A stretch of DNA of 12,878 bases, taken from NCBI GenBank assembly GCA_036507075.1, contig DASXQR010000018.1:1-12878 (forward strand), written 5' to 3'. Position 1 is the stretch's first letter; every line of letters starts with the position of its first letter. The DNA is from Acidobacteriota bacterium (GTDB taxonomy: Bacteria > Acidobacteriota > UBA6911 > JACQSX01). Below, piece after piece: positions 212 through 12,874 of this stretch. The translations under genes were made by a program, and so were the position numbers. Below the pieces are notes generated by a model. That model was not told the DNA's origin. It worked only from the letters and a program-made list of their open reading frames with translations, and did no database searches.

Positions 212-1459
212 CTACGGGCGGCGGCGGGAGTGGCTGGGGGAAGCGCCGAGCGTGACGGCGTCGATCTCGACTCCATCATCGCGGATGGCGCGCAGCGTGA
301 TGCGGGTCTGTTCCACATCAGCGCGCAAGTAGTGGTGTGCCGACCATCTAACGGCGTTCAGCGGACTGCTGTAGGTAGGGTACAGCGACGCGCCCCCGCC
401 GCCGGAGGTGAGGTACACCGTACCGGCGCCGCTGTCGACAGGCACACCTCCTTTGATCGGCTTACTCCGCTGATAGCTGTGTTCATGTCCGTTGATCACC
501 AGCTGCACGTTATAGCGCTCGAGAATCGGCACCACTCGATCACGTACCAGGGCCGATAGCGGATCGTTCTGATTGAGCCCGGTGGAGTATGGCGGATGGT
601 GAAAATAGACAACCCGCCATAATTGCCTCGTTTTTTGCAGGTCGCTTTCCAGCCATTGCAACATTTGGCCCGTTCCGTTAGCCGCTTCAACAAGCGAGGC
701 GTTTGAGTCCAGCGAAATAAAATGCACATTGCCCCAGTCGAACGAGTAATAGCGGCCCCGCCCTCGAACCGGAACATCATCGACAGGCACGGCATGAACG
801 GCCAGGTACGTAGCGGCATTGTTGCTTTCATACTCGTGATTTCCGGGGGTGGGAAAAAACGGCACCAGTCTCATGAGGTCGCGATAATAGCGGAAGTAAT
901 TCCGGTCGATTTGATCGAACGTGCAGCTGGGATAAACAAGATCGCCGGTATGTAACACCAGCGCCGGATCTTCCTCAATCATGCGTCGCGCCACTGAAGA
1001 TTGTCCTGCCGTATCCTCACCGCTGTCGCCGAAAACCAGAAAACGAAAGGGTCCGGGGCCGGGTGTACGAAAATGGAGTTCATCAAGCGGGGTAAGGTTC
1101 CTGTCGTCCAGAATCACACGATAGGAATAATCTGTGCCCGGGCTCAGGCCGCCCAGTTCCGCCCGGTATTGATAAAAGCGGAAGTTCAGTCCGGTGTAAG
1201 GCGCCAGATACTCCTGCACGTCGGCTTCGACGCTGGTGGAAAAACTTCGGTCCGTGGAATACTGAACCACGGCATAGCGATTTTCCACCGTGGTCCAGAG
1301 AATGGTAACTCGATCCCCGCGTAAGTTCTGCAGATACGGGTAACGCAGCGGCGGCGGCAGTTGCAAGAGAGCAGCTATTCCCTTGGAACGCGCGCCTCCC
1401 AGCAGGCCGACCGTTCCTGCCGACAAAGATCGAAGAAAGTTACGACGATTGCTCGCCAT
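212..1459 (-). CDS. Tat-exported purple-acid-phosphatase-like metallophosphoesterase with N-terminal FN3-like domain
   Basis: 415 aa. N-terminal NRRNFLR twin-arginine motif; beta-rich PAP N-domain (PYLQ...VTILWTT...LGGLSPGTDYSYRV); all five calcineurin-like metal motifs in order: GDSG, GDLVY, GNHE, YFHHP, GHEH. Confidence 0.9.
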   Translation of the reverse strand: MASNRRNFLRSLSAGTVGLLGGARSKGIAALLQLPPPLRYPYLQNLRGDRVTILWTTVENRYAVVQYSTDRSFSTSVEADVQEYLAPYTGLNFRFYQYRAELGGLSPGTDYSYRVILDDRNLTPLDELHFRTPGPGPFRFLVFGDSGEDTAGQSSVARRMIEEDPALVLHTGDLVYPSCTFDQIDRNYFRYYRDLMRLVPFFPTPGNHEYESNNAATYLAVHAVPVDDVPVRGRGRYYSFDWGNVHFISLDSNASLVEAANGTGQMLQWLESDLQKTRQLWRVVYFHHPPYSTGLNQNDPLSALVRDRVVPILERYNVQLVINGHEHSYQRSKPIKGGVPVDSGAGTVYLTSGGGGASLYPTYSSPLNAVRWSAHHYLRADVEQTRITLRAIRDDGVEIDAVTLGASPSHSRRRP

Positions 1460-1481
1460 TCAAATTAATTCCCAACCCCCC

Positions 1482-1520
1482 CGGATTACTCACGAATCAA
1501 AAAAGAGTTCGTGAAATCCG
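1482..1520. repeat. Imperfect palindrome of the cacgaa/ttcgtg family
   Basis: cggatt(ac)tcacgaa ... ttcgtgaaatccg between cotH and the phosphatase; same core as 8717..8794. Confidence 0.7.
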
Positions 1521-1529
1521 TGTTCCACT

Positions 1530-2852
1530 TCAAGGCCGTCGCCTGCTGCGTGGCAGGTCTAATCCCAATTCGCGCAGTACAAAGTAACTGCGCTGGCGTG
1601 CAAACTGCCTCAGAAATTCGATCCCGTCTTCAAACTCTTGATTAGAACAGGGCTTCAAGCCCCCTACCCCGTCGGGGCACTGTTTGTTGGGATCCTCAAG
1701 AGCGGCCTCGTGAATCTGATTATACTGGCGGTCGATTTCCAATTCTAGTGATCCATACGGCCCCCCGGCGCGCAATGCGCAACGTGCCAGCGTTTCCAGG
1801 TAAAACTTGCGAAGATCGGCAACCGCCATTGCCCGCCGCATCAGCTCATTCTCCTCTATTCTCAATAAGATAGGGTGCTCGATGGCGCTAAATGTGTTGT
1901 CCTTGTCCCAGGCGATGAACTGCGAGAGGCTCTTTCCCTGGAACCGGTAGAAGTAGAAGTTGTTGATTCCTGCGTACCCAAGGATGCCATCCGACTCGGC
2001 AAGGAAATTCTCCACGGCCACATGGGCGACGAATAGCTTTAAATCCAGGAATTCCGCTGCGGCCCGCTCAAAATCTGCGGCAGGAGTTTGATTAATAATC
2101 CGAGTCATCGCCTCGATAGGGCCGTAGAGTGCGGAAGCGGAATCATTCTCGTGAGTTGTTGGATCAAATATCTCTGCATAACGGGAAAGATCCTGGCCTA
2201 AATAGGTGAGGTAATATGCGTACTTCCACGAGTACTCAAAAAGATAGCCATTGTCCTCACCAAAATTACGCTTCAGGAAATCCTTGTCGACGGATTCCAC
2301 AATTGCGTAAAGGCCGAAGTACTGGTTGTTGATGAACAAGCGAGCGTGCGCTTCGCGCGAAGCAGGCAGCCCCATCTGTTGAAAGAAGAGCATGCTCAAT
2401 CGCTCTCTGAGCATGGACGCATCCTGCGTCATGTTGTCCAGGATGACCGATTTCAGTCCCAGAAACGTTTGCCCCGGCACGTTGCGATTGAAGTCCACAC
2501 GCAGTCCGGGCTTGGCCGCACTGCGGGTGCCTCCTCCACGCGAGCGGATGGCCACGTTCTCGACCAACAAATCGCGATCTTGATAGCGCCATCGAAAATT
2601 GCAATCGTAGTAGGCATTGCTCCGGAAGTTGTTACGCAGGACCTGCCAGTCGTTCGGATGGATGTCGAGCCTTATCTCATGGAGTATCGTGTCATCGAAA
2701 AAGTTGTCGGCAGTCTGGGCTCTGGCCGGGGCCGACAACATTATCAGGAGCGCTGGAATCGCTGTGAGGGGGTGGACCCATTTTTCACCACAAAGACACA
2801 AAAGCCACAAAGGTCCTCTGCCCCCTTTGTGCCTTTGTGGTGAAAATCTCAT
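1530..2852 (-). CDS. Exported CotH-family atypical protein kinase
   Basis: 440 aa. CotH-like motifs IRSRGGGTR, KPGLRVDF, LDN..D.SMLRE, YFGLYAIVESVD, SDG...NNFYFY, IAWDKDNTF; signal-peptide-like segment ending ARA-Q. ATG is 22 nt after the porin stop; codons 3-24 derive from a palindromic repeat. Confidence 0.88.
   Translation of the reverse strand: MRFSPQRHKGGRGPLWLLCLCGEKWVHPLTAIPALLIMLSAPARAQTADNFFDDTILHEIRLDIHPNDWQVLRNNFRSNAYYDCNFRWRYQDRDLLVENVAIRSRGGGTRSAAKPGLRVDFNRNVPGQTFLGLKSVILDNMTQDASMLRERLSMLFFQQMGLPASREAHARLFINNQYFGLYAIVESVDKDFLKRNFGEDNGYLFEYSWKYAYYLTYLGQDLSRYAEIFDPTTHENDSASALYGPIEAMTRIINQTPAADFERAAAEFLDLKLFVAHVAVENFLAESDGILGYAGINNFYFYRFQGKSLSQFIAWDKDNTFSAIEHPILLRIEENELMRRAMAVADLRKFYLETLARCALRAGGPYGSLELEIDRQYNQIHEAALEDPNKQCPDGVGGLKPCSNQEFEDGIEFLRQFARQRSYFVLRELGLDLPRSRRRP
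2782..2846. repeat. Palindromic element with 21-bp arms inside the 5' end of the cotH ORF
   Basis: ttttcaccacaaagacacaaa (2782..2802) and tttgtgcctttgtggtgaaaa (2826..2846) are reverse complements with one mismatch. Confidence 0.9.
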
Positions 2853-2874
2853 GAACGAATTTCCGAGCTAAGGT

Positions 2875-4398
2875 CTAAAGCACGAATTGCAGCCGAAACC
2901 ACCGGCCCCAGAATCGACTTCGACCGGGAATCGGGCTGCGCGCTGTGTCTTCGATTCTTTCACGGACCGCGTTGGCTTGGATTTTCACCCAGCGGTTGAG
3001 GTACCAGTTGATTCCGAAGGTCCAAACGCGATCACTGTTACCCAATATGTTGGCTGCCCGCGTGCCGCGAGAGGGTATCCCGGGATGCTCGCTGCTGCCG
3101 AAACGAATCTGCTCGCAGCGAGCCGCAAGTTCCAGGGCGCCGAAGCCCCGCTCGCGTAAAAATTCTCTGCGCGGTTTGATCTCGTCTGCTTTCTGCTCCC
3201 CGGTCACCGCCCAGGTACCGGTCAGGTACCAGCCACGTGAAATCAGGTCGGGCAGATCCTGGCCGAGCAGGCTTTGCTTCTTGCGCTGCTCTTGAACATG
3301 AATGAATTCGCCCTGGAGTGAAAAAGGCCCCGGCCTCCAGTTCATTTCCGTTCCCACTCGCAGCCTTCGTCCATTGACAAACATATGGCGGAAAAAGGTC
3401 TCTTTAGCGAGGGTGCGTCCACGCAGGCCTTTGAGTCCTTCGGAAACATTGCTGGAGGTGAATGCCATGCCGAGTTCGATATTTTTCGTCACCGCAGGGG
3501 AGGGAATCAAACGAAGCGGCCGCACCAACACGCGACCCGCCAGGGTGTGGCCGCCCGTGTGCTCGTTGTCGCTGGTGCGGGCATTCTCGCCATCCTGAAG
3601 GAAATAGCCCGCCTGATAGCTCAATCCACGCTCAAAGAGGCGCCCGTGGGCCATGATGCCTTTGTCCCGGGCAGGCGCCAGGAGATCACCGATCCGCGAG
3701 CGCATGATAAAGTCCAGCTTGGTCGCGCCCTGCGGTTGGTCCATGCCAAAGGGCAGTTTGAACTTCCCCACTTTGATCTGAAAATCCGGGAAGTAGCGAA
3801 AATTCACGTAGACGTCGCGCCAGGGATTGTCAGTCCTCCCGGCTTCATCGAGGTCCTCGTAGAACCGGCGAAAGGTATCACGCAATTCGCGTTCGATCTC
3901 GAATTCGAAATGTTTGAGAAACCGGCCTTCCACGCCAATGCGCGCACGGTGCAGATCGAACACTCCCTCTTCGATCTTCCGTTCGGGCCAGAAAGTGCGG
4001 AAGTCGCCCTGCGCTTTCGCATGGAAATCGACGCGCAGCGCCTTGCCAAAACGAAGCGAAGGGTAATCCTTCATTTTGAACTTCAAACCGGCCGAGTCTT
4101 TAGTATTTTCATCCTGAGATTGCGCATCTGAAGGGTCTGTTTTCTTTTTCCCGGCCGCCGAACCTTTCTTTTTCCCGGCACCCTCTTTCTTTTTCTCTTC
4201 CTCGGCCGCCGCGTCGGATTTCTTTTTGCCGGAACCGCCCTTCTTCTTCGCTTTCTCGGCAGACGTGCCGGATTTCTTTTTGCCGGAAGAAATACCTTGG
4301 TTATTGTCGGCAATGACGGCGGCTTGCGCTAATAACGGCACTTCACTCACGTGCAGCAGCGAGAACAACAACACGCCCGGCAGGAAAATGCGGAGCAG
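2875..4398 (-). CDS. OprO/OprP-like phosphate-selective porin with Lys-rich N-terminal extension
   Basis: Porin O/P-like motifs HRARIGVEG, IKVGKFKLPFG, RDKGIM, LQGEF, GWYLTGTWAVTGE, GALELAAR, TFGINWYLN, C-terminal RLQFVL. Start uncertain: the ORF-track GTG at 4512 lies inside a repeat element. A CTG at 4398 has GAAGGA 6 nt upstream and precedes a hydrophobic stretch ending AQA. Confidence 0.8.
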   Translation of the reverse strand: MLRIFLPGVLLFSLLHVSEVPLLAQAAVIADNNQGISSGKKKSGTSAEKAKKKGGSGKKKSDAAAEEEKKKEGAGKKKGSAAGKKKTDPSDAQSQDENTKDSAGLKFKMKDYPSLRFGKALRVDFHAKAQGDFRTFWPERKIEEGVFDLHRARIGVEGRFLKHFEFEIERELRDTFRRFYEDLDEAGRTDNPWRDVYVNFRYFPDFQIKVGKFKLPFGMDQPQGATKLDFIMRSRIGDLLAPARDKGIMAHGRLFERGLSYQAGYFLQDGENARTSDNEHTGGHTLAGRVLVRPLRLIPSPAVTKNIELGMAFTSSNVSEGLKGLRGRTLAKETFFRHMFVNGRRLRVGTEMNWRPGPFSLQGEFIHVQEQRKKQSLLGQDLPDLISRGWYLTGTWAVTGEQKADEIKPRREFLRERGFGALELAARCEQIRFGSSEHPGIPSRGTRAANILGNSDRVWTFGINWYLNRWVKIQANAVRERIEDTARSPIPGRSRFWGRWFRLQFVL

Positions 4399-4425
4399 GC
4401 ATTTTCCTTCAGCAAAAAGCCGGAG

Positions 4426-4560
4426 CCGCGAAGGCGCGAAGGCGCTAAATGAATGAGGTCTCTTGACTAACCAATTGGAACTAAACACTGCGATGTCTGC
4501 GGTTCTGGTCACTCAGAAAAACCAGAGCAATTTTGCTTTCGCGCCTTCGCGCCTTCGCGG
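4426..4560. mobile_element. MITE/REPIN-like element with 24-bp inverted arms built from 9-bp units
   Basis: ccgcgaaggcgcgaaggcgctaaa (4426..4449) versus tttcgcgccttcgcgccttcgcgg (4537..4560): one mismatch, 87-nt spacer. Mobility is inferred only. Confidence 0.6.
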
Positions 4561-4561
4561 T

Positions 4562-4592
4562 AATGACGAATGACTAATGAACCAATGACCAA
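4562..4592. repeat. Degenerate 7-bp tandem repeat (aatgacN)x4
   Basis: aatgacg aatgact aatgaacc aatgacc aa, lying 4 nt past the PLD gene stop. Confidence 0.8.
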
Positions 4593-4596
4593 CGCC

Positions 4597-5514
4597 TCAC
4601 TCCTCCTCGTCTTCATCCTCAGAAGACTCCTGGCCGCTCTCGCTTCCGGGTTCCCCTTCACGGAGTTGCTGGAAGAATGCATTCAACTGGCTGACGCAAA
4701 CCGGGTCTTGCACCAGCAGGGCCAGCTCCCGGCGGAAGCCAAGGCTTAGCGCCGACAGAGAAATGCTGCCGATCGTTGCCGCTGCCTGGTCTATCAGAAT
4801 CATCTTACCGTGACTCAATAAGCTTCCCATGTTTCGCCCACCCAGGATTTCGACGGCAACGCCCTCGGCTCTCCTTGCTTCAAGCAGGGTTATCATGGTT
4901 GGATCGGTCAACTTGTGGTCAATGATGCGGATGCTTCGGCGTGCCTGCTGCAGCAGCGCCGTGAGCTGCCCGCGGGCCAGCTCGGGGCCGACGATCAATC
5001 GATTCGACAGACCTTCGGGCAAGGACGAATGTGATGGGCGGCAATCCGCTTCAAAAAGTCTCTTTAGCCCCGAGACCACTTGCCGGTCGTGAGTGATGTG
5101 AATGAAATCGCAGGTTCTCTCGAAACACTTCCGTGTGAAATTCAACGATGCAACAAGAGCCGGACCGTCATCTGCCACCACATACTTGGCATGATATTTG
5201 ACAACCGGGTCGCTGTAGCGGTGGACCTGCGCGCCCAGGCTTTCCAGATACTCCCACAGTTCCTTCAGGCGCTTCTTGCCGCCTTTGGCGCGTGAGGTAA
5301 GAAGGACTTCTACCCGAACGCCGCGCCGCAGGGCTTCAGGCAGAGCGTCCAGCACTTTGAAGTCATCGCAGCGGAACACAGAGAGCAGCAGCCGATGCCG
5401 TGCTCCGCGGATGAAACTCAGCAGCGTCTCTCGCCGCTTGTCCGGTTCCAGGATGGTCCGCTCTTGGCGCGATTGTCCGAATGCATCCTGTTCTGGCTCG
5501 GCTTGAGAAGCCAT
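4597..5514 (-). CDS. Phospholipase D superfamily protein with two HKD motifs, probably cytoplasmic
   Basis: HAKYVVAD...ASLN and HGKMILID...GSIS both match HxK(x)4D; no signal peptide or TM segment; acidic tail ESSEDEDEEE. ATG at 5514 (5 nt after the DUF4956 stop, 305 aa) is preferred to the overlapping start at 5547. Confidence 0.85.
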   Translation of the reverse strand: MASQAEPEQDAFGQSRQERTILEPDKRRETLLSFIRGARHRLLLSVFRCDDFKVLDALPEALRRGVRVEVLLTSRAKGGKKRLKELWEYLESLGAQVHRYSDPVVKYHAKYVVADDGPALVASLNFTRKCFERTCDFIHITHDRQVVSGLKRLFEADCRPSHSSLPEGLSNRLIVGPELARGQLTALLQQARRSIRIIDHKLTDPTMITLLEARRAEGVAVEILGGRNMGSLLSHGKMILIDQAAATIGSISLSALSLGFRRELALLVQDPVCVSQLNAFFQQLREGEPGSESGQESSEDEDEEE

Positions 5515-5519
5515 TGCCC

Positions 5520-6311
5520 TCAGTTGCTCTTCTTTGGCAATTCCCACGTCACCGATTTGATGCCGGAATATCCGCCGCTTATCAATTGCTCGCTCATGTA
5601 TTCCAAAGATGTGTTGGGCTCGAGCAAAACGTGGTATTTGATTGTTGCTCCGTCGCCATGAGATACCTCGCGGGGTTCATAGACCAGACCATAGGCTGCA
5701 AAGATATTCTGGATATGCCGTGTGGGGAGCTCGCGTCCCTCGGCCACCAACTCGAGCATCATGGCCCTTGGCTTCTGCTCGCCGATGTGATCGAGAACAG
5801 CGAGGAACAAGCAGATAAAAACTGTGGCCAGGCCCGCCACGCCAAACGACGCCAGCCCGCACGCCATCCCCACTCCCAGCAGGAGAAAAAGGATGGTGGT
5901 ATCTTTCGGGTCCTCTATCGGCGTGCGGAAGCGAATGATGCTGGCGGCTCCCAGCACGCCGAAGGCCCGCGGCAGGGAGCCGCCGATGATAATCATCATC
6001 AAGGCTCCGGCAACTGTCAGCAGGATTTCAGCCTGTTCCATGGAGCGGCTCAGCAGTTTTTCGCGATGGTAGTGCTTATGGACGGCCGTGATCATGACGC
6101 CCAGTAATGCGGCGACCACCAGCTTGAGCACTTCCAAAAAAGGGTACAGTGGCGGAGGAGTGTCAAGTGCCGGCGATGGAAGGTAGGCCGGCGCGCCCGG
6201 AATGGTCAGCAGACCTGGCCAACGCAGGGCAGACCAAACAAGCGCCGCGCAAAGCGCACCCGACACGATGACCACTTTGAGGGTTTTCCATGATCTTGAG
6301 CGCATCTGCAC
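5520..6311 (-). CDS. DUF4956-family (MgtC/SapB-like) inner-membrane protein
   Basis: Several hydrophobic helices; family-typical AFGVLGAASIIRFRTPIEDPKD..ILF...GVGMACG; small soluble C-terminal alpha/beta domain. Start is GTG 6311 or ATG 6305. Confidence 0.82.
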   Translation of the reverse strand: MQMRSRSWKTLKVVIVSGALCAALVWSALRWPGLLTIPGAPAYLPSPALDTPPPLYPFLEVLKLVVAALLGVMITAVHKHYHREKLLSRSMEQAEILLTVAGALMMIIIGGSLPRAFGVLGAASIIRFRTPIEDPKDTTILFLLLGVGMACGLASFGVAGLATVFICLFLAVLDHIGEQKPRAMMLELVAEGRELPTRHIQNIFAAYGLVYEPREVSHGDGATIKYHVLLEPNTSLEYMSEQLISGGYSGIKSVTWELPKKSN

Positions 6312-6347: not shown

Positions 6348-6356
6348 AGTATAACA
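6348..6356 (-). promoter_or_regulatory. Putative extended -10 promoter of the five-gene operon
   Basis: Minus strand reads TG-T-TATACT about 36 nt upstream of the DUF4956 start; no good -35 at 17-nt spacing. Confidence 0.55.
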
Positions 6357-6371
6357 CCGCTCCGTATCAAA

Positions 6372-6432
6372 GCGGAAGGCGGAAGGCGGAAGGCAGGAGG
6401 CGGGAGGCAGGAGGCGGGAGGCGGGAGGCAGG
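6372..6432. repeat. 7-bp tandem repeat GCRGRAG, 8 full copies plus a partial
   Basis: gcggaag x3, gcaggag, gcgggag, gcaggag, gcgggag x2, gcagg. Confidence 0.95.
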
Positions 6433-6776
6433 CCCACCCAACCGAACCGCGCGCGTAAGCAAGCGGACTCTCGATGTAACACTTCTGGTTTATGTATGAC
6501 CTGGCCCGGATCATTCATGAAGTTTGCGCCGTCCCCTCTCCTACCTGGGTCAGACGCGGGCGTCACCCGCGCAGGGAGAATCAAACTACTTCCACCGGCG
6601 TCAGACCGGCGAAGCGCAAAGCCACGTCCCGCAACGCAAGGGCGTGGCGGAAGCGATCTGAGCCGGCTTGCCGGAATGGGTGATTCGTGCCCCGATTTCG
6701 TTTGCCTCGCTGTGCCCTTGTGGGTCATGGCTCTGCGCTTCGCGCGCAGACTCGCGGCTTTTTGCGTCTTTCTTTT

Positions 6777-8486
6777 TTACTTCCTGGCATCTCGATCAAA
6801 AGACTTTAGTCCGGCCGCTCGCCCGTTGAGCTCATAAATTGCGCCGTTTGTGAGCGAAACGATATAGACACCGCCACCGGGACTTGTTTTAATGTCGGTG
6901 ATCACACCAAAGTCTTTTCCGATCAGCAGGCTCTCGCTTTCGCCCATGTCGTGAAACGTTGCGTTATCGGCAACCAGATCCTGAAGCCGTGAATCGCTGA
7001 ATGAAAGCTTCTTGCGGTCAGCGGAAAGCTTAAACCGAAACAGCGGGCCGCCGAGCGGTTCCGGCACGGCAAAACCGACGAGCAAATCCCCGAAGTATTG
7101 CGACCCGAGTGCCTGCGAGCCGACAAAACCAATTCCCGCAGGAGCGAGCACGTGCTTCCAACTGAATTCGGGATCGCGATAGACAGACCCCGGCAGCACG
7201 AAGAGTCGGGCTAACGCCTCCTGCGGAGTATCCGCGATGCGGCTGGGCCCCCAGCGAAACTGCTGGAGATTCGGGAAATCCTCGTGGTGCAGGGAAGTTG
7301 TTTCGATGGCCTTGTACTGTGACACACGCTCCATGGGACCGATAATCTGAATCCATCCGCTGTTCATTCCGCGCTCGATCCGGTTGATCTCGTCGAAGGC
7401 ATCTTCTCCATTTTCCTCATCCCAGAGATTGCCCGATACAGGATCGAAAGCCATGCCGAAGCCGTTACGAACACCGTATGCCCATACTCTGCGCAGGTTG
7501 AATCCCACGTCGCCACCCACTGACTGGCCGTGCGTGAAGAAGGGGTTGTCGGCGGGTGCAGTCCCGTCGTCATTGAGTCTTAGAATAATTCCGGAAAAAT
7601 GAGTGAGATCAGGTGCAGGGCCGCCGAACTGATCATCGGCAACGGTGGGCCCTAACCCGGTTGCGGTAGGTCCCGATGGAAGATTCTGCATTTGTCCGCG
7701 GCGTCCGGCGTCTCCGAAGAAGGCGTATAACTTGCGGTCAGGACCAAATGCGAGTACACCGCCGTCATGGTTTCCCCGGGGCAGCTGATTTTCGTCGTCC
7801 TGATTTGGAGGAACGGGCGCGCCGTCATTTTGAAATGAGCGCAAGAAGATCAGGTTCTTTTCGAGCGTGAGTGTGGAGCCGTTCCACAGAAAGCTGTCGA
7901 TGCGGTTTCCCAGCAGGGGCGTTGCCAACATGTTATCCGTGTCGGCCCCGAAGAGATTACTTTGCAGAGTTTCGTCAGAATCACGATTTTTCAGGATCAA
8001 GTCAAAATCCAGGCAGGCGAGTTCCTGCGGGAAAAACGCGTTTGGCGGCGCTGTCGCCGTTCGGCATGACCAGAAAAGATAAACTCGAGGGTTGACCGGA
8101 AAGTCCGGATGCAATGCAATTCCAAGCAAGCCGCGTTCCGACGCGAAATTAACCGCAAGATCCAGCACCGTGCTTTGAACGGCGCCGTTTACGATTCGCA
8201 GAACCTTTCCGGTATCTTTCTCCAGTAGAAAAAAATCATTTGGTCCGAGAAAGGCCATGCTGATCGGGGTCTTGAGGCCGGAAATTACGGTTCGCAAACT
8301 CAAGTCTGGAACGGTCAACGTCGGCGCGGGATCCTGCGCGCTCACTGCCGGATTCACCATGAGCAGCATGGCGCCTGCGGTAATAAGAAGCAGACCGGCC
8401 CTGACAACCTTCGCGCCTCGCTGAAGGAGAGGAAATCCGGCGGTGATGTAATAGAGAAAACTTCGCACAGTGGTGTGTAGGAACAT
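6777..8486 (-). CDS. Exported PQQ-dependent sugar dehydrogenase (glucose/sorbosone dehydrogenase beta-propeller family)
   Basis: Motifs GLKTPISMAF, ERGLLGIALHPDF, NHDGGVLAFGPD, GIILRLNDDGTAPADNPF, AYGVRNGFGMAFDP, DEINRI..G.N.GW; signal-peptide-like segment ending VSA-Q. AAGGAGG at 8502..8496 is 9 nt from ATG 8486, favouring it over TTG 8492. Confidence 0.9.
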   Translation of the reverse strand: MFLHTTVRSFLYYITAGFPLLQRGAKVVRAGLLLITAGAMLLMVNPAVSAQDPAPTLTVPDLSLRTVISGLKTPISMAFLGPNDFFLLEKDTGKVLRIVNGAVQSTVLDLAVNFASERGLLGIALHPDFPVNPRVYLFWSCRTATAPPNAFFPQELACLDFDLILKNRDSDETLQSNLFGADTDNMLATPLLGNRIDSFLWNGSTLTLEKNLIFLRSFQNDGAPVPPNQDDENQLPRGNHDGGVLAFGPDRKLYAFFGDAGRRGQMQNLPSGPTATGLGPTVADDQFGGPAPDLTHFSGIILRLNDDGTAPADNPFFTHGQSVGGDVGFNLRRVWAYGVRNGFGMAFDPVSGNLWDEENGEDAFDEINRIERGMNSGWIQIIGPMERVSQYKAIETTSLHHEDFPNLQQFRWGPSRIADTPQEALARLFVLPGSVYRDPEFSWKHVLAPAGIGFVGSQALGSQYFGDLLVGFAVPEPLGGPLFRFKLSADRKKLSFSDSRLQDLVADNATFHDMGESESLLIGKDFGVITDIKTSPGGGVYIVSLTNGAIYELNGRAAGLKSFDRDARK

Positions 8487-8716
8487 TATCAAGGACCTCC
8501 TTCGGTCGCCCTATTGTTACGTTAATATTTGAATCGTACTGCGGAAGGAAGAAGAGGCAAGAGGATGGAGAGAGTAAAAACCTCTTTTCCAGATTCTTCT
8601 GGAATGCACTCTATCGATCGGGGCAGCGTGATCCAGAAAATTGGACTATGAGACTTCGTTAATCCAATTTCTGCGAAGTGCGCGCGGCGTGAGGTCTTGG
8701 AAATTGAATTTCTGAG

Positions 8717-8794
8717 GAGCACGAATTGACACGAATTTCACGAACCTATTTGAAAGATTCGTGAAATTCGTGCCATTCGTGAAAATTCGTGCTC
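8717..8794. repeat. Palindromic element of tandem cacgaa/ttcgtg units
   Basis: Perfect 11-bp terminal inverted repeat gagcacgaatt (8717..8727) / aattcgtgctc (8784..8794); three cacgaa units left and four ttcgtg units right; overlaps the transporter stop codon. Confidence 0.9.
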
Positions 8795-10271
8795 AACTCC
8801 CCAACCACGACTGCAGCAAATTGCGGATTACGAAAAAGGAGAAAAAGGCATAAAAACCTGCACAGACAAGCAGCATCAATTCACGCCACAGAGGAGGGCG
8901 AACGGCGCGCGGAAGAAAGCGACGATTCACCAGAAAGATCTGAATGCCTCCAATCACGAGGACCATTCCGGCTATGTTGGCAAGGATCGTAAAGAGTTTC
9001 ATGGGTGAAGCGCTTCTGATGGCAATGACACCCCAGATAGAGAAGGCCGCAAGAATACCGTAATAGATCCGGCGAATACTGCCGCCCCGCCAGTCGCGCA
9101 GGCGCGGACTGGACATCCACAATGCGTCAGTGACGGTCCTGACAAGAATGTCGGTGTTGCCCAACTGGGTCTTGAACAATGTCCAGAACCCGTTAAAGAG
9201 TGTGAGAAACCAGAATCCGACCCAGGCCTTTTCTGCGAGGTACTTTGCCTGATAAGCCCCGGCGGCCAATCCCTGAAGATCGGTTCCGTGCGGGATAAGA
9301 CTGGTGGCAAGGTTCACGTTCAGGTACATGCCAAAGAAGCAAAACAACCCCCAGACCCAGATCTGATCGGCATGGATATAACGCATCCATTCGTTCCAGT
9401 GGCGCAGGCTGGATTCGTTCACTGCGAAGACCTTCCCTACGTGAGACAGCTTTATCTCATGCCCCCCGACGGCGCTTGGAATTGCTCCGACTTTCGCTCC
9501 CATGCCGAAACCTTTGTCGCGGACCCAATTGGAAACAGTCAGGTTCCCGATCCCGCCCGAACCCGCAGTTGCGGCCAGAGCTCCGATCAATAACCAGTCG
9601 ATCGGGTGAGGTATGCCCGAGAACTGAAAAAAACCGAGGAATGTTTGCCACCAGTGCGTCAACGGAACGTAGGCCAGGTTGACGAACACCAGAAAACTGA
9701 ACACGCCGGCCAGCATGGTCCAGGCAAAGTATTCGAGCATTTTCTCAATCGTCCCGCCGAAAGAGAGAATTCCCACCACCACAAAAATCAAGCCGGTCGC
9801 AATCCATGCTACGTCCCCGGCATCGGCGCGGGAGGAAGGAAGCCTGCCCGTCCAGGCGCTGAACAAAGTTGTCGCTGCTGATCCAGCCAGAGCAGGCCAT
9901 CCCAGTTGAAAAAAACCGACGATGGTGTAAAAGACCGCCCAGAATCTGGGACCGGGTTTAAGCCGCATGATGCCGCCATAGATCGGCTCTCCCGTGTAGA
10001 GCGTATAGCGCACCGCTTCAAGGTTGAAAATCACCTGCAGCAAAATTGAAACCGTAACGATGAGAAAAATGGACGACGAATATTTCACCGCGGCAGCGGG
10101 ACCGACCAGCCATTCACCTCCGCCGATGGACGCCGCCGCCAGCACGGCGCCGGGTCCTATGACCCGCAGCAGGTTTCTGAAATTGAAATGCGGCGGCGCG
10201 GGCAGTTCGTCTACTTCCCAGGGGGGAAGCTCGCCATGGCGTGTCGGCAGTGTTCCGGCCTCTTGCTGCAT
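8793..10271 (-). CDS. Nramp-like / APC-superfamily membrane transporter, substrate unknown
   Basis: 492 aa with roughly 11 hydrophobic segments; N-terminal IGPGAVLAAASIGGGEW and RYTLYTGE. Lacks the DPGN motif of true MntH. Confidence 0.75.
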   Translation of the reverse strand: MQQEAGTLPTRHGELPPWEVDELPAPPHFNFRNLLRVIGPGAVLAAASIGGGEWLVGPAAAVKYSSSIFLIVTVSILLQVIFNLEAVRYTLYTGEPIYGGIMRLKPGPRFWAVFYTIVGFFQLGWPALAGSAATTLFSAWTGRLPSSRADAGDVAWIATGLIFVVVGILSFGGTIEKMLEYFAWTMLAGVFSFLVFVNLAYVPLTHWWQTFLGFFQFSGIPHPIDWLLIGALAATAGSGGIGNLTVSNWVRDKGFGMGAKVGAIPSAVGGHEIKLSHVGKVFAVNESSLRHWNEWMRYIHADQIWVWGLFCFFGMYLNVNLATSLIPHGTDLQGLAAGAYQAKYLAEKAWVGFWFLTLFNGFWTLFKTQLGNTDILVRTVTDALWMSSPRLRDWRGGSIRRIYYGILAAFSIWGVIAIRSASPMKLFTILANIAGMVLVIGGIQIFLVNRRFLPRAVRPPLWRELMLLVCAGFYAFFSFFVIRNLLQSWLGS

Positions 10272-10550: not shown

Positions 10551-12014
10551 ATGAAGCGCAGATCGATTCTCCGAGGCCGCCGCGCGGCGCTGCTCTGTAT
10601 CATCGCTGTTGGTTGTGTTCCTCTTGCGACGAGAGTGCCAATTGCGGCTACTGTTGGCAGGCAACAGCCACCTTCGGCGGAGCGTGCGCGCTCGGCCAGG
10701 CCCAATATCATTTTCATCATGGCAGATGATCTGGGTGTGGGGCACCTGGGATGCTACGGCCAGACACGGATACGCACCCCGAACATCGACCGTCTCGCGC
10801 AGCAAGGACTGCGTTTTGCGCAGGCATACGCCGGTTGCACGGTTTGCGCACCATCACGCAGCACATTAATGACAGGCCTGCACATGGGACATACGCCGGT
10901 GCGTCTCAATCCCGGCGGGATTCCACTGCGTGCCTCCGACATCACTGTTGCCGAGGTGCTCAAGAAGGCAGGCTACGCCACCGGAATTTTCGGCAAATGG
11001 GGACTGGGTGACGCCCGCACCACGGGCGTTCCCGAAAAACACGGCTTCGATGAGTCGTTCGGTTATCTGCACCAGGTGCACGCTCATTTTTACTATCCGG
11101 ACTACCTCTGGAAGAATGGGGCGAAATTTATTTTGCAGGAAAACTCCGGCGGCAAGCGAGGACGGTACTCTCACGATCTAATCGTCAGCGAGGCGCTGGA
11201 CTTTGTGCGCGCACACCGGGATCGCCCGTTCTTTCTTTATCTGGCGCCCACGATTCCGCATCTGGAGCTTTTGGTGCCGGAAGATTCACTGGACGAATAT
11301 CGCGGACGATTCCCTGAGACTCCGTTCCACGATCCGCGGGGCCACTACGCCGATCAGGCGACGCCCCACGCCGCCATTGCGGGAATGATCACTCGGCTCG
11401 ACCGGGGGGTGGGTCAACTGATGTCCCTGCTGGAGGAACTGAATCTGGACAAGAACACCATCGTGTTCTTTACTTCCGACAACGGCGCACAAAATGGATA
11501 TGCTACCGATCCGGACTTTTTCAAAGCGACCGGACTGTTTCGAGGGTACAAACAGGATTTCTATGAAGGTGGAATCAGGGTGCCGATGATCATCCGCTGG
11601 CCCGGACGTGTGCGCCCCGGGCGCATGACCGATCAGATATGGGCACACTGGGATTTCATGCCGACGGCGGCAGAAGTGGCCGGCTCACGAGCGCCTTCCA
11701 ATGTCGACGGCATATCGCTCCTTCCCACGATTCTTGACAAGCAGCAGAAGCAGCACTCCTTTTACTACTGGGAATTCGGTGATGCGGCAAAGCTGGCGCA
11801 GGCGGTGCGTGCGGGGGACTGGAAGGGCGTTCGCACGCGTCCCGGCGTCGCTCTGGAGCTGTACGACCTGAAGGCCGACCCGGGGGAGAAGCGCAATGTC
11901 GCCGCCGACCATCCCGACGTTGCAGCGCGCATCGAAAAGATTTTGAGAACTGCCCGCGTCGATCCGCCGCCGCAGATCGAACCTCCCAAGGAACCGGGAA
12001 AGAGTTACCAGTGA
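10551..12014 (+). CDS. Exported formylglycine-dependent (Cys-type) sulfatase, arylsulfatase A-like
   Basis: RPNIIFIMADDLG, CAPSRSTLMTG (CxPxR), GKWGLG, FTSDNG, YEGGIRVP, ELYDL..DPGE. ATG 10551 starts a basic then hydrophobic leader (MKRRSILRGRRAALLCIIAVG). The ORF-track start at 10188 overlaps the opposite gene. Confidence 0.93.
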   Translation: MKRRSILRGRRAALLCIIAVGCVPLATRVPIAATVGRQQPPSAERARSARPNIIFIMADDLGVGHLGCYGQTRIRTPNIDRLAQQGLRFAQAYAGCTVCAPSRSTLMTGLHMGHTPVRLNPGGIPLRASDITVAEVLKKAGYATGIFGKWGLGDARTTGVPEKHGFDESFGYLHQVHAHFYYPDYLWKNGAKFILQENSGGKRGRYSHDLIVSEALDFVRAHRDRPFFLYLAPTIPHLELLVPEDSLDEYRGRFPETPFHDPRGHYADQATPHAAIAGMITRLDRGVGQLMSLLEELNLDKNTIVFFTSDNGAQNGYATDPDFFKATGLFRGYKQDFYEGGIRVPMIIRWPGRVRPGRMTDQIWAHWDFMPTAAEVAGSRAPSNVDGISLLPTILDKQQKQHSFYYWEFGDAAKLAQAVRAGDWKGVRTRPGVALELYDLKADPGEKRNVAADHPDVAARIEKILRTARVDPPPQIEPPKEPGKSYQ

Positions 12015-12038
12015 CGCTGTCGGCAGTGGATTTTTTTT
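12015..12038 (+). terminator. Possible weak intrinsic terminator between convergent genes
   Basis: cgctg-tcgg-cagtg (5-bp stem with one G-U pair) followed by ga and T8. Confidence 0.35.
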
Positions 12039-12400
12039 CAGCGGGCAAACGGTACGATCCTGGAGCGAAGAATGGAGCGGTCGCGGGTAAGCAGGGGTAG
12101 TTTTTCGACAATGCTGGTGGCTGCAATGATTTCGTCTTCGGGGCCGGATTTGAAATCGAGCTGGGTGCTTATCCGGGCGATCTCCAGAGTGATTGGAACA
12201 ACTGAAATTGAGCGAAGCGCCTGGCGGAATTCGCTGCTGTCAAAATCGATCTGCAGGCGTCGCATCTGTGAAAGCTTTGCAAGCTCCCAGAGCACGATGT
12301 CGGAGATTGCCAGTGTTTCTGTCACGATGTGCTTTTCCTCGCGCGGCGTCAGCTCCCCGGCCAGCAGGGCGATCAGAATGTGAGTGTCAAGATTTAACAT
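12038..12400 (-). CDS. vapC: VapC-family PIN-domain ribonuclease toxin
   Basis: 120 aa; PIN acidic residues in LDTH, WELA, EDEIIAAT, LLTRD; overlaps the upstream antitoxin by 14 nt. Confidence 0.9.
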   Translation of the reverse strand: MLNLDTHILIALLAGELTPREEKHIVTETLAISDIVLWELAKLSQMRRLQIDFDSSEFRQALRSISVVPITLEIARISTQLDFKSGPEDEIIAATSIVEKLPLLTRDRSILRSRIVPFAR

Positions 12401-12617
12401 TCCATTTTGCGCCTGTGCTGAAGATGTTTCCCTTCACCTTGATCTTCGTCTTCATCGACCCGATCAGGCTGCGATTCTGCTCAGCCAATATGGGCGCCAC
12501 CCTGGCGATCGGCTTACCCCGTTTGGTTACGATGAGGCCCTGGGCATCGAGTTCGTCAAGAATCTTCAGACACTTGGCCTTGAACTCGGTCACGGTCATG
12601 GTTTTTGGGCCAGTCAT
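12387..12617 (-). CDS. Phd/YefM-family antitoxin
   Basis: 76 aa; N-terminal MTVTEFKAKCLKILDEL...LIVTKRGKPIARVAP typical of Phd/YefM DNA-binding domains; directly upstream of vapC. Confidence 0.9.
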   Translation of the reverse strand: MTGPKTMTVTEFKAKCLKILDELDAQGLIVTKRGKPIARVAPILAEQNRSLIGSMKTKIKVKGNIFSTGAKWNVKS

Positions 12618-12776: not shown

Positions 12777-12874
12777 GACGCTGAAAGCGTCAAATAGAGT
12801 AGCCGGGGGCAAGCGCGTTTTTTGCGCGCCGCCCCCGGTGAGCTTCCCCAAACCGGCGCACCCTGAAAGGGTGC
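12777..12874 (+). repeat. Composite GTAG-type REP-like element
   Basis: Hairpin gacgct-gaa-agcgtc (12777..12791), GTAG (12799..12802), palindrome ccgggggc...gcccccgg (12803..12838), second hairpin gcaccct-gaa-agggtgc (12858..12874). Confidence 0.8.

Follow-up and report, generated by a model that had tools for sequence, protein, structure and literature searches.

A conserved bacterial gene module in which DUF4956 adjoins a PLD-fold enzyme with PPK1-type residues

The window analysed here is the entire contig DASXQR010000018.1 (C18; 12,878 nucleotides) of the Acidobacteriota bacterium assembly GCA_036507075.1 (genome G000, 95.7% complete). Its minus strand carries five genes encoding, in reading order, a DUF4956 membrane protein, a phospholipase D (PLD)-fold enzyme, an OprO/OprP-family porin, a CotH-family kinase and a metallophosphoesterase. 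These genes form a real, conserved and unstudied variant of an unexplained module, in which DUF4956 is accompanied by VTC, PPK1 or the PLD in most of 46 examined loci and by two of them in none, and in which the PLD keeps PPK1-type residues. VTC and PPK1, two of the three enzymes filling this slot, are known polyphosphate polymerase families. Given this pattern, the link to polyphosphate drawn in the original prediction is strengthened, and the module very probably handles polyphosphate. What is new is that the PLD resembles the core of PPK1 and that any of three enzymes can occupy the place next to DUF4956.

Enzyme partners of DUF4956

In 301 genomes of the phylum, DUF4956 was found in 40 (48 matches) and the PLD family in 26 (30 matches). 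The surroundings of 46 of the 48 DUF4956 matches were examined over at most 18-20 kb, an enzyme being counted as a partner when it lay on the same strand within 4 kb; the match G240:C153 was left out, and G090 offered a short locus only, with VTC adjacent. The partner was VTC in 16 of these 46 loci, PLD in 13, full-length PPK1 in nine and none of these in eight, and two partner enzymes at once were found in 0 of 46. The 13 cases with PLD cover six families. No VTC match was detected in G000.

A gene for CotH or for an unnamed kinase-fold protein (described below) is present no more than 7 kb away in 12 of 13 PLD loci, 8 of 9 PPK1 loci and 6 of 8 partnerless loci; the corresponding figure for VTC loci is 6 of 16 by local models and 10 of 16 when Pfam matches are added. 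The full-length ppk1 gene stands within 1.5 kb 5' of DUF4956 (L141-L146, L148, L150 and L153), and a convergent DSP phosphatase gene is often present in such loci. In L017, L020, L025 and L027, VTC-DUF4956 is followed by a gene for an HlyD-type membrane fusion protein or a FadL-type outer-membrane barrel, an arrangement that hints at an export route. Viewed from the PLD, 20 of the 29 examined genome matches (of 30) have a gene of the module or a polyphosphate gene within 5 kb, and eight of the nine that lack such a neighbour have the lowest scores of the set or scores close to these.

Gene order and recurrence of the module

Where the original prediction had placed five co-oriented genes, five minus-strand open reading frames (ORFs) were found, each above its Pfam cut-off. 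The DUF4956 gene (PF16316, an MgtC-like inner-membrane protein of 261-263 aa; positions 5520..6311; E 4.6e-10) starts at GTG 6311 or ATG 6305. It is followed by the gene for the 305-aa PLD-fold enzyme with two HKD motifs (4597..5514, in an ORF extending to 5547; PLDc_2 twice, 7.7e-30), and those for the outer-membrane porin (Porin_O_P, PF07396; 2875..4512; E 6.1e-32), the CotH-family kinase, predicted to be exported (PF08757; 1530..2852; E 9.3e-44), and the purple-acid-phosphatase-like metallophosphoesterase, with Metallophos and purple-acid-phosphatase N domains (212..1459; 1.1e-19). The DUF4956 stop and the PLD start codon (ATG 5514) are 5 nt apart, and the later gaps are 84 nt (to the first porin start), 22 nt (porin to CotH) and 70 nt (CotH to phosphatase). 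The gaps of 5 and 22 nt thus stand as predicted, whereas the palindromes at the junctions, which had been taken to fill others, are genome-wide repeats. One spans the PLD-porin junction (4421..4560; 55 sites in the genome) and the other lies within the CotH ORF start (2782..2846; 147 sites); hence, both were excluded as parts of the system. The 70-nt gap, taken whole, is a single site in the genome. Co-transcription is suggested by the gaps and the conserved order.

Metagenome loci were drawn from the best 80 of 555 PLD relatives (70 clusters at 90% identity), a set biased to close relatives and consisting mostly of short contigs. DUF4956 lies immediately 5' of the PLD gene in 40 of the 65 loci with room for it, the porin gene immediately 3' in 30 of 57, and the whole run DUF4956-PLD-porin-CotH is present on 8 of the 80 contigs; neither VTC nor PPK1 was found in any of the 80. 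The four-gene run also occurs in genomes G234 and G082, and G308 carries all five genes in the same order at 49-60% identity. Orthologues of the phosphatase (48-54% identity) follow CotH in three of the 80 metagenome loci and in G308 (L037, L038, L057 and L236), whereas other loci have a metallophosphoesterase paralogue of ~300 aa and ~30% identity nearby, often on the opposite strand. The predicted recurrence of the gene set therefore holds for a four-gene core, and the phosphatase is an accessory and the least conserved member. The distribution is patchy: in a set of 41 near relatives, this PLD subgroup was detected in G000 and G308 alone, and a second PLD subgroup in G000, G301 and G303. 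A scan of the genome collection with the single PLD sequence returned two loci.

Relationship of the PLD-fold enzyme to PPK1

The PLD profile matches Escherichia coli PPK1 (1xdo) in one collinear stretch, residues 17-278 of the PLD against 339-638 of PPK1 (C1+C2). PPK1 proteins from DUF4956 loci likewise match as one stretch and the PPK1 of G000 itself over a shorter one, whereas cardiolipin-synthase-type proteins match only in pieces. Residues H108, H235, D136 and E263 of the PLD align with the PPK1 quartet H435, H592, D470 and E623 (PMC3163519; 10.1101/630129).

Specific residues were compared in an alignment of 23 family-like, 10 PPK1 and 23 other PLD cores, with subgroups A-C of the family comprising 19 members; numbering was counted on the 1xdo alignment and the offset checked at H435 and H592. 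The positions of PPK1 R375 and R405, which we take to contact phosphates, and of R621 are occupied by basic residues in 19/19, 14/19 and 19/19 members of subgroups A-C, in 10/10 PPK1 sequences each, and in 0/23, 1/23 and 0/23 other PLDs, respectively. The counterparts in the window are R48, K77 and R261. R375 and R405 are also named as pocket residues in docking work (PMC7301697). Four more distant rows (L137-L140) lack a basic residue at the R375 position. Two of the three basic residues are also present in a related subgroup (L136-L139) that is sister to the PLD family at 82/78 and is encoded directly 3' of a gene for an ABC transporter.

A structural model of the PLD (pLDDT 90.5) was submitted to Foldseek, and six of the top eight rows were PPK1 (TM 0.74), a bacterial phospholipase D being first; in a wider fold search, PPK1 came within 2 Z units of the top match. 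In a 56-row tree, one branch (100/97) parts the family and PPK1 from the cardiolipin synthases, and the corresponding branch in a second tree has support of 99/98. Cardiolipin-synthase family models scored the PLD at 30.8 and 44.5 bits against cut-offs of 290 and 281. The labels DISARM DrmC and NucT were rejected (69.6 against 133 and 54.3 against 211 bits, over the N-terminal half only). No publication on PDB entries 9urj (PPK1 with bound polyphosphate), 9uuh (with bound ATP) or 9uri was found in the literature search.

Hydropathy analysis detected no hydrophobic segment in the PLD and five in DUF4956, so that a cytoplasmic and an inner-membrane location, respectively, are predicted. No intact longer form of the PLD was found in a search for fusions. 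The protein P0121, considered as a DUF4956-PLD fusion, contains only PLD and porin pieces joined by out-of-frame text and is thus a frameshift artefact. DUF4956 and CotH occur in one ORF in P0122, P0123 and P0124, possibly as read-throughs, which is a weak lead.

The other members of the module

DUF4956, present as the sole copy in G000, ends in a soluble domain that follows the five hydrophobic segments. An R-x-R pair (R125 and R127) is kept in every one of 53 aligned sequences and across all three partner types. The match to MgtC is weak (E 7.8e-4). The protein in the window has no STAS domain, whereas many orthologues do; an N-terminal STAS domain is common in those encoded 5' of PLD (L111:2818-3981, L029:1270-2382), and a second, truncated DUF4956 precedes the PLD in L086, L105 and L111.

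The porin exceeds its family model cut-off (111.7 against 20.9 bits) and matches OprP (2o4v, E 2.7e-7) and OprO (4rjx, E 1e-5), members of a porin family with a role in import. Its start codon is uncertain, with the first ~37 codons overlapping a genome-wide repeat. A lysine-rich repetitive linker in its N-terminal part (4138-4290) is absent from the 447-aa orthologue match in G308.

CotH residues D288 and D316, conserved in a local alignment of 30, align with two aspartates 23 residues apart in 5jd9; these were matched by spacing to the catalytic D228 and D251 of Bacillus subtilis CotH (PMC7821199). The phosphatase matches purple acid phosphatase 6gja (E 2.8e-17) and contains the motifs GDSG, GDLVY, GNHE and GHEH. 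Export of both proteins is predicted from signal peptides read by eye, an AxA-type site at residue 41-47 in CotH and a twin-arginine RRNFL at residue 5 in the phosphatase; neither protein passed the hydrophobic threshold. CotH, the porin and the phosphatase therefore belong by sequence to known families, with the CotH aspartates kept, although they occur here in a non-spore, two-membrane context, unlike Bacillus CotH, OprP/OprO and the purple acid phosphatases.

Other polyphosphate genes and kinases in these genomes

Elsewhere in its genome, G000 also carries genes for a thymidylate-kinase-fold pair, the unnamed kinase and PPK1. The thymidylate-kinase-fold pair, found in 12 of 17 long loci (G000 copy L235:3663-5049, contig C211), is probably a family 3 polyphosphate kinase, judging by its resemblance to PPK3 (described in PMC12995831). 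The paralogous PLD of the second subgroup (L033:6286-7182, G000:C94; also L237 and L238) has HxR in its second motif like PPK1. Its gene is divergent from ppx-ppk1-sixA in G000, G301 and G303, and the G000 locus further includes genes for a DSP phosphatase and a CHAD protein.

The unnamed kinase-fold family (alignment A3; ~320 aa) has an N-terminal hydrophobic stretch or predicted signal peptide and is represented by L141:9491-10453, L146:2284-3249, L131:7088-8248 and L234:5417-6523 (G000:C17). The best matches of its model are the atypical kinases CtkA, Fam20C and HipT (E 4.6e-6, TM about 0.5), and its Atlas neighbours lie under 0.9 among Fam20C, PI3K, CotH and HipA clusters. Member 1 has no Pfam match, only single-member chance matches were seen among 25 members, and neither the CotH of the window nor any solved relative was matched by sequence. 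The gene sits between ppk1 and DUF4956 or adjoins that for PLD, and the protein appears to replace CotH in these loci.

Comparison with known systems

The closest known arrangement is a trio of CotH, a VTC-like polyphosphate polymerase and DUF4956 that adjoins Gram-positive pel loci (10.1101/768473; 10.1101/2024.04.20.589940). Like this trio, the function of which is unexplained, the module combines DUF4956, a CotH predicted to be exported and a cytoplasmic polyphosphate-type enzyme; it differs in having a PLD-fold enzyme in the VTC slot, and a phosphatase and an OprO/P porin are present in addition. Pfam revealed no pel-like gene among the scanned ORFs of the window, and in 10.1101/2024.04.20.589940 the trio was not found outside pel operons. 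In the available parts of both papers, neither PLD nor PPK1 is mentioned as accompanying DUF4956. A literature search covering few subscription papers likewise revealed no such partner, no stand-alone PPK1 core and no bacterial polyphosphate exporter, and the accessible text of PMC13318637 held nothing on these families.

With E. coli PPK1, the PLD shares the collinear C1+C2 region, the catalytic quartet and the basic residues at R375, R405 (Lys here) and R621, though it has 305 rather than 687 aa. With cardiolipin synthase and bacterial phospholipase D (7e0m), it shares two HKD motifs and the fold, and it differs in its separate branch from cardiolipin synthases, scores far under the cut-offs, the PPK1-type arginines and the lack of a membrane anchor. 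In yeast VTC, the polymerase sits atop a membrane channel formed by a small oligomer and lined by basic rings (10.1101/2023.01.27.525886). The logic proposed below, of a polymerase on a basic-ringed membrane channel, would be an analogy rather than a demonstrated homology between DUF4956 and the VTC membrane domain; the catalytic fold is different and the genes are separate.

A possible polyphosphate route and its alternatives

The pathway put forward in the original prediction, which would make or deliver a phosphoryl donor across the inner membrane for an exported kinase and phosphatase, or export or recycle polyphosphate, is partly supported: it gains from the recurrence of the four-gene core and the polyphosphate link but loses the phosphatase as a core member. 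In the version preferred here, the PLD core would form polyphosphate in the cytoplasm, an arginine-lined DUF4956 oligomer would pass it across the inner membrane, and exported CotH would use it to phosphorylate envelope substrates. The porin would serve as the outer-membrane passage for polymer or phosphate, with the phosphatase an optional member that trims or reverses. The steps differ in strength. The PLD probably acts on polyphosphate via a phospho-histidine at H108. That it synthesises the polymer, coupled as in yeast VTC to passage through an oligomer lined by the invariant arginines, is suggested with slightly less than even confidence, and the same near-balance applies to the overall reading, in which DUF4956 has its own mini-PPK1 and conducts the polyphosphate from it to the exported kinase. 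The use of polyphosphate as donor by CotH, with the roles given to porin and phosphatase, is a tentative and rather doubtful addition.

A number of results weigh against this route. Within the PLD, the H/H/D/E quartet was seen in the residue alignment to be general among PLDs and hence is not diagnostic of PPK1. In the PLD of the window, G occupies the R564 position, where only 53 of 124 sequences have R; the R594 position holds K, and Y468 is replaced by T134. No Pfam match to PP_kinase_N or PP_kinase was found in the 305-aa protein, which lacks the N and head domains. The PLD is therefore not a PPK1 member, and since the missing N domain caps the adenine in PPK1 (PMC6416319), use of ATP in the PPK1 manner is doubtful on these residues; the PLD may work like the core of PPK1, and its direction may be consumption of polyphosphate instead of synthesis. 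Neither the profile scores nor the fold ranking nor the tree place it closer to PPK1 than to other PLDs. Cardiolipin-synthase-type and other PLD domains scored 85-119 against 71 and 52 for the PPK1 domains, the profiles of which are shallower. In the wide fold search, PPK1 ranked fourth (Z 27.9) behind 7e0m (29.7), PLD4 (28.9) and F13 (28.3). The 56-row tree resolved no clade of the PLD family and PPK1 among other PLDs. Such a clade was neither found nor rejected in the second tree, from which 24 rows (long branches, near-duplicates) had been dropped, the two grouping at 89/68 with another subgroup included (p-AU 0.25).

Further points of this kind concern the rest of the module. The nine loci with PPK1 all belong to one family, so that the counts are not independent and reflect few independent events, and eight of the 46 DUF4956 loci have none of the three enzymes. 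G000 already possesses its own PPK1, beside which the second-subgroup PLD stands without DUF4956. Channel activity of DUF4956 is a proposal, and its profile gave no match under E 0.2 to solved structures. CotH uses ATP wherever tested (PMC7821199), and deletions of the trio in Streptococcus intermedius left Pel and aggregation largely intact (10.1101/2024.04.20.589940).

The alternative that survives best is regulatory, though unlikely. DUF4956 would then be an MgtC-like regulator that relays the state of the exported kinase and phosphatase to a cytoplasmic polyphosphate enzyme, and no polymer would cross the membrane. The MgtC match, the STAS domains of many orthologues and the partnerless loci, six of the eight keeping a kinase, are consistent with this. 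So is the S. intermedius paper, which gives 4 transmembrane segments plus ACT and suggests cytoplasmic polyphosphate (10.1101/2024.04.20.589940). However, regulation leaves unexplained the porin right behind the PLD, the arginine pair shared by all three DUF4956 types and the donor of the exported kinase.

Quite improbable is inward flow, in which external polyphosphate would enter via the porin, be trimmed by the phosphatase, be taken up through DUF4956 and be consumed by the PLD, whether hydrolytically or by transfer to ADP or some other acceptor. It would suit an OprO/OprP-family porin, a PLD that keeps basic residues without the adenine cap, and the phosphatases of two other kinds that recur nearby. 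Synthesis is nonetheless favoured by VTC and PPK1 taking the same slot; moreover, the exported kinase is left unexplained and the phosphatase is the least conserved member.

No better placed is the possibility that the PLD is a cardiolipin-synthase-like lipid or glycan phosphotransferase, with the module placing phosphate on envelope lipids or polysaccharides and polyphosphate being incidental. Higher profile scores with cardiolipin-synthase-type domains, a bacterial phospholipase D as best structural match, automatic names reading 'cardiolipin synthase' and a Gram-positive trio adjoining pel polysaccharide genes all point that way. Against these stand the branch that parts cardiolipin-synthase types from the PLD family in both trees, scores of at most 44.5 against cut-offs of 281-787, and the absence of a hydrophobic segment. 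In addition, the second-motif Asn present in 23/23 other PLDs is Ser or Ala in 16/19 family members, and G000 has a separate cardiolipin-synthase-type gene. Finally, a short, repeat-rich contig and a PLD subgroup found in just two of the 41 near relatives might suggest that the genes adjoin by chance or through misassembly. This is scarcely credible given the same order in G308 (all five), G234, G082 and 8 of 80 metagenome contigs, and for the four-gene core such recurrence already refutes it.

Sequence context of the module

A consensus promoter scan of the window gave four sites where 5.0 were expected, which is not above chance, and none upstream of 6311. An extended -10-like motif, TGTTATACT (6348..6356, minus strand), identified by pattern search, is a candidate promoter 5' of DUF4956; its pattern class occurs 80 times in 6.1 Mb.

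The neighbouring genes encode a glucose/sorbosone dehydrogenase (6777-8492), an Nramp-family transporter (8793-10271), a sulfatase (10552-12014) and a PIN-domain (VapC-like) protein (12038-12617), and none of these was found to recur in a cluster with the module. A short ORF upstream of the PIN-domain gene may be its antitoxin. Short palindromic or tandem repeats at 1-37, 140-205, 2782-2846, 4421-4560, 6365-6435, 8717-8794 and 12789-12825 belong to several unrelated families with 32-147 genome sites each; two of them add repeat-derived peptides to ORF starts, and the contig ends are inverted copies of one repeat. A sequencing-run search identified two soil metagenome runs containing half or more of the stretch, one of which may be its source, and listed no RNA run as containing it.

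Significance

The exported kinases of non-sporulating bacteria need a phosphoryl donor. The pairing of DUF4956 with VTC, PPK1 or PLD, with no two together in 46 loci, makes the module specifically and cheaply testable, via a 305-residue soluble enzyme and a membrane partner with two arginines. In the strongest form of the preferred reading, which is held to be rather unlikely as a whole, the PLD would be the first stand-alone 'PPK1 core' polymerase, and DUF4956 would be a polyphosphate export channel for VTC, PPK1 and mini-PPK1, supplying two exported families of atypical kinases whose phosphoryl donor is polyphosphate, not ATP. If the proposed route is true, the PLD would represent a new polyphosphate enzyme family and DUF4956 would gain a function, with a bearing on phosphorus cycling by soil bacteria. 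Were DUF4956 the channel for three polymerases, this would provide a general answer to extracytoplasmic phosphorylation in bacteria.

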